Positions 15,701-30,552 of a DNA stretch of 64,000 bases are shown here, one piece after another. Positions within the stretch are counted from its first letter, which is position 1. Every line of letters starts with the position of its first letter. The position numbers were made by a program, and so were the translations under genes. Origin of the DNA: Chiloscyllium plagiosum (Eukaryota); assembly GCF_004010195.1 (NCBI RefSeq), contig NC_057752.1:4896879-4960878 (forward strand), written 5' to 3'. A model generated the notes under the pieces. It was not told the origin of the DNA, did no database searches, and worked only from the letters and a program-made list of their open reading frames with translations.

Positions 15701-16845
15701 GTCACTACACAATTGGCAAGGAGATCATTGACTTGGTTCTAGACAGAGTCCGTAAACTGGTGAGTGCGATCTCTGTCCCAGACAGAGACCAAAATGTGGA
15801 ATGTAGATGTTGCAACTAGTCATTTAAATACCAGGTAACAGAAATTTGCATTTGTTTTCTGCAGGCTGACCAATGCACAGGTCTGCAAGGTTTCCTGGTC
15901 TTCCACAGCTTTGGTGGTGGCACTGGCTCTGGGTTTACATCTCTTCTGATGGAACGTCTCTCCGTTGACTATGGCAAGAAATCCAAGCTTGAATTCTCCA
16001 TCTACCCAGCTCCCCAGGTGTCCACTGCAGTGGTGGAGCCTTACAATTCCATCCTGACAACCCACACTACCCTGGAGCACTCTGATTGTGCTTTCATGGT
16101 TGACAACGAAGCCATCTATGACATCTGCCGAAGAAACTTAGATATTGACCGGCCAACTTACACCAACCTGAACCGATTAATAGGCCAGATAGTGTCCTCT
16201 ATCACTGCCTCCCTTCGCTTTGATGGTGCCCTGAATGTTGATCTGACCGAGTTCCAGACCAACTTGGTGCCATATCCCCGTATCCATTTCCCCTTGGCCA
16301 CTTATGCACCAGTTATCTCTGCTGAGAAGGCATACCATGAGCAGCTTTCAGTGTCTGAGATAACCAATGCATGTTTTGAGCCAGCCAACCAGATGGTCAA
16401 ATGTGACCCTCGCCATGGCAAGTACATGGCCTGCTGTCTCCTTTACCGGGGTGACGTAGTGCCAAAAGATGTCAATGCTGCTATTGCTACTATTAAAACT
16501 AAACGTACCATCCAGTTTGTGGATTGGTGTCCCACTGGTTTTAAGGTTGGTATTAACTACCAGCCTCCTACTGTGGTTCCTGGAGGTGACTTGGCCAAGG
16601 TTCAGCGGGCTGTATGTATGTTGAGCAACACCACAGCTGTTGCTGAAGCTTGGGCTCGCCTGGACCACAAGTTTGACCTGATGTATGCCAAGCGTGCCTT
16701 TGTTCACTGGTATGTTGGTGAGGGTATGGAGGAAGGAGAGTTCTCAGAAGCCCGTGAGGATATGGCTGCCTTAGAGAAGGATTATGAGGAAGTTGGTGTT
16801 GACTCTGTCGAAGGGGAAGGAGAGGAGGAAGGGGAAGAATATTAA
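12788..16845 (+). CDS. TUBA1A: Alpha-tubulin gene 1 (TUBA1A-like residues; orthology not proven), join(12788..12790,15264..15486,15611..15759,15865..16845), 451 aa
   Basis: Canonical vertebrate alpha-tubulin exon sizes 3/223/149/981 nt with GT-AG sites (ATG|gtaaga, cag|CGTGAG, G|gtaggt, tag|ATGAGG, CTG|gtgagt, cag|GCTGAC). Protein has MREC start, SDK40TIGGG, GGGTGSG and C-terminus [14 protein letters not shown], with G232 and T340. Confidence 0.96.
13610..13696 (+). mobile_element. Penelope-like tail fragment with hammerhead-like motif in intron 1 of gene 1
   Basis: aTGAAGA-aGGG-ttaca-CCC-GAAAC-GTC-gact; homologous to the minus-strand copy at 35330-35435. Confidence 0.6.
14055..14330 (+). 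mobile_element. 5'-truncated HE1-like SINE in intron 1 of gene 1
   Basis: SINE body gtggagttcacattttcccc...ccaaaaatgtgcaggttagg. Confidence 0.7.
15264..15486 (+). CDS. TUBA1A: Alpha-tubulin gene 1 exon 2 ([12 protein letters not shown]...DLEPTVI)
   Basis: 223 nt, flanked by ttgcag and gtaggt. Confidence 0.97.
15611..15759 (+). CDS. TUBA1A: Alpha-tubulin gene 1 exon 3 ([49 protein letters not shown])
   Basis: 149 nt, flanked by cctag and gtgagt. Confidence 0.97.
15865..16845 (+). CDS. TUBA1A: Alpha-tubulin gene 1 exon 4 (codons 126-451 plus stop)
   Basis: 981 nt, preceded by ttttctgcag; contains ORF 15949..16845. Confidence 0.97.
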
Positions 16846-17339
16846 CATGATTTTGACATCACAATATGGTGCTGCTGTACAGGGATTCCAGATTAAAGTA
16901 TAAAACATTGCATTAAACATGGTGAATTGTAACTGCAGGTTAACCAATTTGAGGGGGTGTGGTCCTTCAATTTGTTAATTATCAGTTACACACTTGCATA
17001 AGTCATGACCATTAATGTTTAATCACCGGTTTAATGATCTTTGCATTCCATATTTATTTTATTTTAAATCTTATATTCTATTGTTTTTTAAAAAACTTTT
17101 TTTTCTTCTACCCAATGTTCCATCTTGTATTGTATTCCACATCATAATGCCAAGCCTTTGCAATTGACCTCAACTGGTTTTAGGTCAGTGGATAATTTGG
17201 CTATTTTTTTTTTTAAAAGTGTGATTGTGTTTCAACTCTTCCCTTGGTTATATTCTATCACAATGTACACTTTAAATCGAGATTGCAGTGCAGCGAATCC
17301 CTTTACAAATGTAACTCGTGTTCTGTCTCTTGATTTATC

Positions 17340-17345
17340 AATAAA
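17340..17345 (+). terminator. Probable poly(A) signal of gene 1
   Basis: AATAAA at the end of a 3'UTR block conserved with gene 2. Confidence 0.6.
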
Positions 17346-27345: not shown

Positions 27346-27447
27346 CCAATCCACTCTAATTGACATCTTCTCCCGCCACCTCCTTTCTTCCTCTGAACCA
27401 ATGGCGATGAAAGATTGGACTAAGGACGGCCTCCATTCATATAAAAA
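27346..27447 (+). promoter_or_regulatory. Core promoter of alpha-tubulin gene 2
   Basis: CCAAT at 27346 and 27398, inverted CCAAT (ATTGG) at 27414, GC-box-like CCCGCC near 27372, TATAAAAA at 27440-27447. Confidence 0.75.
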
Positions 27448-27563
27448 GGCGCCATCCGCTAATATTTCCCACTCGGTTACTTACACCGACTCGTTATTGT
27501 CGAGCGAAGTAACAGTCCCATTCTTTGTAAGTTCATCCATATCATTTTCTGACTTGAATAAAA

Positions 27564-30552
27564 ATGGTAAGTATACAATATTATTTTCCATCCAAAACTA
27601 ATTTATATTCGTGCCGCCTGTCATATCGATGGTGCACAATTGCGCCGAAATTAATCAGCAACCTTTATTTTATCGCCGTCGTGGTGTACTTTCTTTTGAA
27701 GTGCAGTAGCGTTTGTAGTCGACTATAATGTTGCTTTGAAGTAACAAGCTTGGCAACGTTGTTTAAAATTGAAGCTCATTTGTCTTTTAATACATCAATG
27801 CTAAAGCTCGATGGCAGTAGCATTTGCTCTACCCCTCCCCCAAAACATAATTTTCCAGCGTGTAAAATATTCTTTGTCTGGGAGAAGTCATTAATCGATT
27901 ATTTCGCTCGAGTGAGGCAGAAAGTGATCCTGGTGTAGCATCCATGTGTGTAATGCGCTGCATTGGTTTGGGGAGGGGAGGTGGGAGAGAGAAAAGGCGT
28001 CGCTCTGCTCTTTTTGAACGTGAAGCTTACCCGCGGGAATCAAGAGGTTTCTCTTTCATCCGCCTGGCTTTAAAGCGCTCCAGCTCTTCTGAACTGCCTG
28101 AATGAAAAGCGCGGGAGTTGGGGAACGCTCTCGGTGCGCAGTTTAAAATCTAGAGGGAGATTTGAGGTTGGGGAGGGTTAGACAAAGCAATAATTCTCAT
28201 TCTGCAACTTAAATTGCTCGAGTTTATAAAAGACTAAAAGTCTGACCCTAACAATGGCTGTCGAGCCGTGTGTAAATGTGGTTATTTAGTAAATAAAGGT
28301 CTAGGCTTTACACGTACCCTTTTACATCTACTCCCATGTCCTGTTCAGCACTCTATAGATCCCACAGGGAAAACCTGGCGATGGATGGGAACGCTTTATC
28401 GAGCAGTTCGGGTACTAACATGGCGGAGCCGCTGTGGCCTGTAGGTGCCGCAGTGCGCACTACATCCTGGATATTGTAGTTCTGTCACTGGTTCCCGCGC
28501 GCACAGGGACGCAGCGGAAAACTACATCTCCCCCCCCCCCCCCCAAATATTTGTCGGAGCCTGGACCCGCTCACTGCGCATGTGCTGTTTTCCAAGCTCA
28601 GGCGCCAAGTATCATCTCGAGGAGCTGAAGCGTTCAAAGCAAACTTAAGTCAAAATCACAGACCTTGGCCATTATCGCTAGTGCATCAGCCGAGGATGTT
28701 TTTAACATCGCTGTTCTTGACTACAGTTTAGTGGTTGACGTGATCTTAGCGAGCGATGCTTGAGCAAAGCTGCAGGACAAATATCCTGAACTGATTGTAT
28801 TGTATTCTTTTTTTCTCTCTCGTTCTCTTTTCTACAGCGTGAGTGCATCAGTATCCATGTTGGCCAGGCTGGAGTCCAGATTGGAAATGCCTGTTGGGAG
28901 CTTTACTGCTTGGAACACGGCATCCAGCCTGATGGGCAGATGCCCAGTGACAAGACCATCGGAGGTGGAGATGATTCCTTCAACACGTTCTTCAGTGAGA
29001 CTGGAGCAGGCAAACATGTTCCACGAGCTGTGTTTGTGGACTTGGAGCCAACTGTAATAGGTAGGTGATAGCATGGGTGACAGTTGCCTTCAGATCTCTT
29101 CTCTTCTCTGGTTATGCTTGAGCCTGATTTCATCCCATGATTGCACGTGTTAATAAATTGCTGAATTTTGTCTCCCCATCCTAGATGAGGTTCGTACTGG
29201 TACATACCGCCAGCTGTTCCATCCTGAGCAGCTGATCACTGGGAAGGAAGATGCAGCCAATAACTATGCCCGTGGTCACTACACAATTGGCAAGGAGATC
29301 ATTGACTTGGTTCTGGACCGCATCCGTAAACTGGTGAGCTGGCTGTTAAATCCCATTTTTAGCAAGGATTAAATCAAAACCTAAACTCTGTTCAATTTGT
29401 ATAGGAGCTGTTTGCCCACTCTATATATAGAAAATTTCTTCTTGTAGTCTTCAAATAAATCTTTTGTTCTATGTTTATAATTAACCACATTCCATAAAAA
29501 TAATTGTTACTGAGTAACAAATACACTGTGTACTTAATATGCTTGTGGTATCTCTGCTTATTTTAAAACAGGCTGACCAATGCACAGGTCTGCAAGGTTT
29601 CCTGGTGTTCCACAGCTTTGGTGGTGGCACTGGCTCTGGGTTTACATCTCTTCTGATGGAACGTCTCTCCGTTGACTATGGCAAGAAATCCAAGCTTGAA
29701 TTCTCCATCTACCCAGCTCCTCAGGTGTCCACTGCAGTGGTGGAGCCTTACAATTCCATCCTGACAACCCACACTACCCTGGAGCACTCTGATTGTGCTT
29801 TCATGGTTGACAACGAAGCCATCTATGACATCTGCCGAAGAAACTTAGATATTGAAAGGCCAACTTACACCAACCTGAACCGCCTCATCAGTCAGATAGT
29901 GTCCTCTATCACTGCCTCCCTTCGCTTTGATGGTGCCCTGAATGTTGATCTGACCGAGTTCCAGACCAACTTGGTGCCATATCCCCGTATCCATTTCCCC
30001 TTGGCCACTTATGCACCAGTTATCTCTGCTGAGAAGGCATACCATGAGCAGCTTTCAGTGTCTGAGATAACCAATGCATGTTTTGAGCCAGCCAACCAGA
30101 TGGTCAAATGTGACCCTCGCCATGGCAAGTACATGGCCTGCTGTCTCCTTTACCGTGGTGACGTAGTGCCAAAAGATGTCAATGCTGCTATTGCTACTAT
30201 TAAAACCAAGCGTAGCATCCAGTTTGTGGATTGGTGTCCCACTGGTTTTAAGGTTGGTATTAACTACCAGCCTCCTACTGTGGTTCCTGGAGGTGACTTG
30301 GCCAAGGTTCAGCGGGCTGTATGTATGTTGAGCAACACCACAGCCATTGCTGAAGCTTGGGCTCGCCTGGACCACAAGTTTGACCTGATGTACGCCAAGC
30401 GTGCCTTTGTTCACTGGTATGTTGGTGAGGGTATGGAGGAAGGAGAGTTCTCGGAAGCCCGTGAGGATATGGCTGCCTTAGAGAAGGATTACGAGGAAGT
30501 TGGTGTTGACTCTATCGAAGGGGAAGGAGAGGAGGAAGGGGAAGAATATTAA
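27564..30552 (+). CDS. TUBA1B: Alpha-tubulin gene 2 (TUBA1B-like residues; orthology not proven), join(27564..27566,28838..29060,29185..29333,29572..30552), 451 aa
   Basis: Same 3/223/149/981 exon structure with GT-AG sites (ATG|gtaagt, ctacag|CGT, G|gtaggt, ctag|AT, CTG|gtgagc, aacag|GCT). S232 and S340; C-terminus [14 protein letters not shown]. Confidence 0.96.
28838..29060 (+). CDS. TUBA1B: Alpha-tubulin gene 2 exon 2
   Basis: 223 nt, appears identical to gene 1 exon 2; strong polypyrimidine tract upstream. Confidence 0.97.
29185..29333 (+). CDS. TUBA1B: Alpha-tubulin gene 2 exon 3
   Basis: 149 nt, ends DRIRKL|gtgagc. Confidence 0.97.
29572..30552 (+). CDS. TUBA1B: Alpha-tubulin gene 2 exon 4
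   Basis: 981 nt, lies within ORF 29539..30552. Confidence 0.97.

Follow-up and report, generated by a model that had tools for sequence, protein, structure and literature searches.

Duplicated genes subject to gene conversion can retain a narrow peak of divergence at an amino acid replacement inside otherwise homogenized sequence, a situation described by the divergence-peak model of Teshima and Innan and exemplified, in the available parts of the papers concerned, by exon 5 of the genes for red and green opsins and by the Drosophila pair CG18281/CG17637 (PMC3924837, PMC2588116). A similar peak is found among the alpha-tubulin genes of the shark Chiloscyllium plagiosum, three loci of which (genes 1, 2 and 3), all on the + strand, lie in the 64,000-nt stretch of DNA analyzed here (positions 4,896,879 to 4,960,878 of contig NC_057752.1; hereafter the window). 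This peak stands at residue 232 and is probably ancient, kept by selection under long-lasting conversion. The mechanism itself is already known from the opsin-type peak, and the TUBA1A/B/C case is new to the literature searched, which consisted of listings and the starts of abstracts, with subscription journals mostly outside its coverage: it contained no report of a divergence peak for these genes and 0 papers joining TUBA1A, TUBA1B and gene conversion. On the same partial sources the opsin duplicates are about 30-40 million years (My) old, and the tubulin peak lies at one codon in both shark and mouse; the tubulin peak is also unlike that of the opsins in being only 12-27 nt wide and in involving three or four genes, one of them inverted. 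Shark and mouse have been separated for more than 400 My.

Other described systems resemble the shark locus in part. The tandem pairs TUBG1/2, DDX19A/B and BMP8A/B likewise have converted exons and introns beside divergent promoters, over more than 100 My, but their mosaics, as set out in the accessible text of PMC2720389, are on the scale of exons and have no single-codon peaks; that text contains no 'TUBA', and the shark tubulin case would be several times older. The TUBA1 cluster has been traced only to mammals, frog and anole in the portion of PMC4202323 at hand, where the word 'conversion' is absent. The functional meaning of the difference between TUBA1A and TUBA1B at residues 232 and 340 had not been investigated as of a 2017 review, according to its available sections (PMC5648057). 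Neither residue is mentioned in the accessible part of PMC10607685, and the partial text of a TUBA1A variant-scan preprint has nothing on residue 232.

Genes 1 and 2 of the window each have four exons with GT-AG borders and 1356 coding nucleotides. Gene 1 (12788..16845; exons 12788-12790, 15264-15486, 15611-15759 and 15865-16845) encodes 451 amino acids and starts at 12788 rather than at 15745, where the sequence-only reading of this DNA had begun it; gene 2 (27564..30552; exons 27564-27566, 28838-29060, 29185-29333 and 29572-30552) has 451 codons. Solved-structure sequences and a mouse protein alignment give the isotype signatures G232/T340 for alpha-1A, S232/S340 for alpha-1B and S232/T287/T340 for alpha-1C. 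Gene 1 carries the 1A residues and has alpha-1A as its best solved-structure match, and gene 2 carries the 1B residues. Gene 0, a TUBA1C-type gene of 449 amino acids that lies in inverted orientation some 75 kb upstream of gene 1 (G000:C43:4831498-4834451, - strand), carries those of 1C save for S340, with TUBA1C (449 amino acids, S232, T287) as its best match. The mouse TUBA1A and TUBA1B proteins are separated by residues 232 and 340 alone.

Exact comparison of genes 1 and 2 gives 25 nucleotide differences in 1356, the number estimated by eye in the sequence-only reading, and all six replacements named there (V/I122, D/E220, G/S232, T/S340, V/I384 and V/I440) are present, as are the three example sites that it quoted at codons 229-232, 337-340 and 119-122. 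Its further count of about 18 differences within three codons of a replacement is numerically correct (18/25), but 7 of those 18 fall inside the replacement codons themselves; counted fairly, 11/18 synonymous nucleotides, or 9/16 synonymous codons, lie at most three codons from a replacement. Even so counted, the synonymous differences are clustered near replacements and not randomly placed, as the permutation test proposed in that reading now establishes (9/16 versus 1.33 expected, p 1e-5; 100,000 permutations, replacement codons excluded). The excess persists when synonymous clusters are kept intact (5/12 near a replacement versus 1.19 expected, p 0.004) and when only 232 and 340 serve as anchors (5/16 codons versus 0.44 expected, p 2e-5). 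Five of the six replacements have a synonymous neighbor, the exception being 440. On the 5' side of the replacement lie 8/9 of the shark island synonymous codons (15739-16641) and 4/5 of those in mouse, partly a matter of codon geometry and degeneracy. CpG effects, considered as an explanation, fit codons 399, 419, 432 and possibly 383/384, and fail for 229-232.

Because conversion by itself clusters differences, neutral conversion was simulated, and at least nine near-replacement codons were reached in only 5/19,561 samples overall. Neutral tracts of 10-1000 nt gave this count in 2/7504 accepted samples; forward neutral runs gave it in 3/9123 samples with no mismatch sensitivity and in 0/876, 0/23 and 0/2035 accepted samples with tracts stopping at mismatches, or 3/12,057 with the four forward settings pooled, the forward samples being autocorrelated and their model free of tandem mutation and intron edges. 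Simulated protection of 232 and 340 raised the frequency to 102/11,074, and protection of all six sites to 227/1728, which is the better fit to the shark count. A peak model, its divergence increasing with proximity to protected sites, outperforms a flat model in both shark and mouse (twice the log-likelihood difference, 14-33).

The background from which the peak rises points to exchange of DNA between the genes. The most homogenized block of gene 1 (15264..15738, + strand; partner 28838-29312 in gene 2, and also gene 0) spans exon 2, intron 2 and most of exon 3. Exon 2, said by the sequence-only reading to look identical, differs between genes 1 and 2 at 0/223 positions and is the same in gene 0 as well, a single difference falls at codon 88, and intron 2, whose near identity that reading overlooked together with the homology of the 3' untranslated regions (3'UTRs), matches at 121/124 positions. 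Since exon 2 is identical and only 3/124 sites of intron 2 differ, the exchange took place at the DNA level. Promoters, intron 1 and the third intron of gene 1 show only shuffle-level similarity and are unalignable between genes 1 and 2, as had been claimed; intron 3 is homologous between genes 0 and 2 (164/185), and that of gene 1 is unrelated to both. The divergence of this unconverted non-coding DNA indicates an old duplication, though gene 2 is younger at its 3' end, where its UTR matches that of gene 1 at 349/479 positions. Among exon-4 codons capable of synonymous change, gene 1 differs from gene 2 at 13/295 and from a paralogue on another chromosome at 122/294. The closeness of paralogues within a species extends over most of the gene in shark (25/1356) as in mouse (23 differences, by eye). 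Furthermore, the odd gene out shifts along the sequence, being mostly gene 1 at codons 119-232, gene 0 at 235-303, gene 1 at 337-340 and gene 2 at 383-432, and 33 sites informative among genes 0, 1 and 2 fall into 9 runs versus 21.3 expected. The proposal of old paralogues under repeated conversion is supported by this three-gene mosaic, by an intron 2 that is converted where introns 1 and 3 are unrelated, and by the same pattern in mouse; long-lasting conversion is well supported, and gene conversion as such is close to certain.

Mouse Tuba1a and Tuba1b, compared in the mRNA alignment of PMC6697361 (S9 Fig; counted by eye, and the sole outside species at the DNA level), have 10 of their 23 coding differences in codons 225-233, and replacements at 232 and 340 alone. 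Within three codons of these two residues lie 5/18 mouse synonymous codons, versus 0.5 expected (p 5e-5), and four codons, 88, 229, 230 and 231, differ in both the shark and the mouse pairs (0.67 expected, p 0.003). At sites 230.1 and 232.1 (codon and base), gene 1 shares its base with Tuba1a, and genes 0 and 2 share the other base with Tuba1b and Tuba1c. Grouping by paralogue across species is strict at 232.1, 230.1, 340.2 and 88.3 and partial, on one side, at 229.3 and 231.3, whereas in three 60-nt blocks outside the main island 25/180 positions group by species and 0 by paralogue. The expectation that islands should group by paralogue and the remainder by species appears to hold at 229-232 against mouse, on few sites and in one species. 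At codon 88 (15646-15648 / 29220-29222), far from any replacement, the same difference separates shark genes 1 and 2 and mouse Tuba1a and Tuba1b; this likeness is probably a coincidence, because gene 0 sides with gene 1.

The islands are not equal. Synonymous divergence exceeds that of neutral conversion at 232 and 340, is ambiguous at 122, 220 and 384, and shows no excess at 440. The main island, at codons 229-232 (16174..16185 in gene 1, with G232; 29881..29892 in gene 2, with S232, identical in gene 0), packs 6 differences into 12 nt and occupies the same place as the mouse peak at 225-233. The island at codons 337-340 consists of a T340 block (16498..16509) found in genes 1 and 3 and an S340 block (30205-30216) found in gene 2 and gene 0; mouse differs at 339-340. 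Codons 119-122 (15739..15750; partner 29313-29324) form an island unique to gene 1 and absent in mouse, 9-20 nt from the non-homologous intron 3, and likely reflect conversion fading at that intron edge, although shark-specific selection on V122 may be involved, other intron edges having no island. Codons 220-221 (16147..16152; partner 29854-29859) differ at two adjacent bases about 33 nt from G232, D220 occurs in 3/120 homologues, and the likely source is either a tandem mutation or the flank of the 232 peak. Codons 383-432 (16636..16785) form a tract in which gene 1 is the same as gene 0, V384 included, and gene 2 agrees with gene 3 wherever genes 1 and 2 differ (five sites). V384 occurs in 8/120 homologues, of which 5 also have T287, the 1C marker, and mouse Tuba1c has I384; genes 0 and 1 being identical throughout the tract that contains it, V384 of gene 1 appears overwritten rather than protected, an apparent import from the TUBA1C-type gene. 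The replacement at 440 has no island at all. Gene 1 carries A or T at 10/11 island synonymous sites, as would be expected if a patch with no partner escapes GC-biased conversion. Gene 0 has an island of its own at codons 287-290 (T287, A289).

The idea that selection keeps the islands finds support at G/S232 and weaker support at T/S340, the two residues by which alone mouse TUBA1A and TUBA1B differ, but not at V384 or 440, with edge or tandem-mutation explanations available for 122 and 220. Likewise, the suggestion that all six replacements mark isotype-specific residues draws support from the six-site simulation, but only 2/6 of them match mammalian 1A/1B differences, and protection of all six is unlikely. 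Under the explanation proposed here, repeated DNA-level conversion would have homogenized the TUBA1A/1B/1C-type genes since before the shark-mammal split, its tracts erasing new differences as they arise between copies. Selection would remove tracts that overwrite G232 of the TUBA1A-type gene and would guard T/S340 less strictly. With G232-replacing tracts selected against, the nearest synonymous sites would rarely be corrected, so that a narrow peak survives. We infer the age of the peak, selection as its cause and the amino acid as the target of that selection. The fuller history, in which TUBA1A, 1B and 1C have converted one another since the jawed-vertebrate ancestor, with the buried G232 of the neuronal isotype defended throughout and T340/S340 moving between paralogues as old blocks, is slightly favored. 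The available sections of PMC5648057 describe residue 232 as buried and 340 as close to the interface between dimers; at a guess, G232 affects core packing or folding.

Several observations weigh against this account. Residue 232 toggles widely (G in 71, S in 43 and A in 5 of 120 homologues), the third base of codon 232 (232.3) groups crosswise, and 340 is not faithful to paralogue, since the gene 1 block recurs in gene 3, and S340 of gene 0 contrasts with T340 in the TUBA1C of mouse and basking shark. The simulation that protects two sites falls short of the shark count, the tract-length profile is flat, so that the fit does not identify tract length, and the mosaic run test falls to p 0.065 after clustered sites are collapsed. 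The comparison at the DNA level is with one species and by eye, the coding exons of genes 1 and 2 are taken from the assembly consensus, and the assembly near gene 3 looks unreliable. That gene 1 uses the rare mouse codon types at both 230 and 231 could arise by chance with odds of about 0.05 (10/33 x 4/25, on its own codon usage) and is only suggestive.

The alternative that survives best, though it is improbable, is a neutral barrier: a chance cluster of mismatches, arising by tandem mutation or beside a non-homologous intron, would block conversion locally and perpetuate itself, with the replacements as passengers. The differences at 220/221 and 383/384 are indeed adjacent base pairs, island 119-122 abuts an intron without homology, 232 and 340 toggle freely across homologues, and a barrier that predated the shark-mammal split would sit at the same place in mouse too. 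However, the mismatch-stopping simulations described above, within the limits of their model, never reached nine codons; between shark and mouse the island has changed its synonymous states but kept G and S on their respective paralogues; and the start of exon 2 adjoins an unalignable intron yet has no island.

Rather less credible is that codons 229-232 are under selection as RNA or DNA, through mRNA stability, a binding site or translation speed, with G232 riding along. Of the 27 Ile codons of mouse Tuba1a the single ATA, and of its 32 Leu codons one of the two of TTR type, fall within the island, where gene 1 has the same types (by eye), and homozygotes for a synonymously recoded Tuba1a exon 4 die, the recoding also reducing mRNA, as reported in the accessible part of PMC9867703. 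That recoding, however, ran through the entire exon (78.8% identity), most island codons do not have the same exact bases in shark and mouse, and the A/T-richness of the gene 1 islands is likewise expected for a copy without a conversion partner. The TUBA1B short open reading frame of a preprint, available in part, could not be placed on the island.

An artifact is very improbable, that is, assembly collapse or mis-phasing that created the identical stretches and scrambled the islands. The assembly is fragmented (101,977 contigs), a gap (21735..22330) lies between genes 1 and 2, the sole anchor of the 232 island in gene 2 is an intron possibly present in gene 3 as well, and the 170-bp tandem repeat and deletion of gene 3 appear in 0/3 contig runs, though a filter may hide such records. 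Yet intron 2 and codon 88 keep single-base differences of different patterns, mouse reference mRNAs independently give the same pattern, the combinations G232+T340 and S232+S340 agree with the phasing of mammalian 1A and 1B, and cross-mapping of reads needs copies that are already near-identical. That the genes are recent duplicates carrying short divergent tracts imported from another tubulin gene is scarcely tenable, for although V384 of gene 1 does look imported from gene 0, gene 1 codons 230-231 occur in 0/11 readable exon-4 sequences on other contigs (1/12 is frameshifted; the numbers of copies are minimum values), and neither the promoters nor introns 1 and 3 can be aligned.

The setting of the genes also recalls mammals. 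Gene 1 and gene 0 are head to head; beyond gene 0 lies a peripherin gene whose nearest relatives are shark and ray proteins, and about 51 kb past gene 3, the tubulin copy nearest to them, lie exons of an LMBR1-family gene, presumably LMBR1L rather than LMBR1. The order and orientation of the mammalian TUBA1 cluster are, we assume, the same as those of the shark's. In human, one table entry for a copy-number interval holds LMBR1L, TUBA1A, TUBA1B, TUBA1C and PRPH, in the part of PMC9956985 available. Likenesses to the mammalian TUBA1A/1B/1C cluster thus include the G232/T340, S232/S340 and S232/T287/449-amino-acid signatures, the peripherin and LMBR1-family flanks and a Tuba1a 3'UTR motif; the shark cluster differs in its fourth copy, in a gene 2 with 1B residues and a 1A-type UTR, in S340 of gene 0 and in the extra replacements at 122, 220, 384 and 440. 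Residues 232, 287 and 340, tail length and the PRPH/LMBR1L flanks mark a TUBA1C/1A/1B-type cluster between peripherin and the LMBR1-family gene, and the shark genes may correspond one to one with mammalian TUBA1A, 1B and 1C. The protein-cluster listing contained no shark protein of the gene 1 type. A second alpha-tubulin cluster (loci L047, L048 and L049, G000:C7:103.63-103.73 Mb) is homogenized as well, with 21-48 differences in 930 nt and 232/340 states of G/T, G/S and S/S; its synonymous differences cluster near replacements in 2/3 pairs (p 3e-4, 7e-4, 0.075), its S232 gene having a small island only.

Gene 2, despite its TUBA1B-type residues, is probably a hybrid with a gene-3-type promoter and a TUBA1A-type 3'UTR. 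The 3'UTRs of genes 1 and 2 align through the poly(A) signal (score 155 versus at most 43 for shuffles), and both hold a motif shared with the mouse Tuba1a 3'UTR (16859..16876 in gene 1, second copy 30566-30583 in gene 2, + strand), so gene 2 fails as a clean TUBA1B. This motif has 2 matches in the window and none in 100 shuffles, a control that flatters it because the motif was chosen by eye; among 54 loci it occurs in 2, genes 1 and 2. Conversion extends about 40 nt beyond the stop codon (16846-16910 / 30553-30618), across the motif conserved in mouse Tuba1a, which presumably contains miR-29 and miR-15/16 seed matches. The promoter of gene 2 is 99.4% identical to that of gene 3, and the shared promoter, exon 1 and part of intron 1 are 99.4-99.9% identical. 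An unequal crossover between genes 1 and 3 is the likely origin of gene 2; beyond the 3'UTR, a search for collinearity of the gene 1-2 and gene 2-3 spacers found only scattered repeat-like matches on both strands, from which the crossover model gains no support.

If gene 2 is such a hybrid, gene 3, adjoining the LMBR1-family gene, may be the positional TUBA1B. As assembled, gene 3 (42997..45159, + strand) combines a promoter, exon 1 and partial intron 1 resembling those of gene 2 with exon 4 from codon 234 onwards, followed by its own 3'UTR; everything from the end of intron 1 to codon 233 is missing, and the promoter contains a tandem repeat of 170 bp. Both deletion and repeat may be mis-assembly or gap-closing errors. 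M425V in gene 3 stands beside a synonymous change at 426. Contigs over the gene 2 promoter and intron 1 show, in 2/3 contig runs, two different left flanks at the duplication edge 26810, and the duplicate promoter is therefore real; a raw RNA run gave 6 reads. The contigs of the 3 runs showed no joint for the 170-bp repeat, no gene 3 deletion and no loose end at 28148, an absence that proves little because records were filtered. Another assembly join is possible at 41589-41798, where a SINE-like fragment is enclosed by an exact direct repeat of 85 bp.

Among tubulin genes, TUBA1A has mutations most often in tubulinopathies, and its loss in mice meets with no compensation. If a conversion-resistant peak at 232 has held from sharks to mammals, the difference between the proteins would matter, and not expression alone. 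Orthology of the TUBA1 cluster would then reach the cartilaginous fish, and the cluster would be a very old case of continuing conversion, with the warning that tubulin gene trees would misdate these duplications, and the conversion map would amount to a natural functional scan of tubulin isotype residues.

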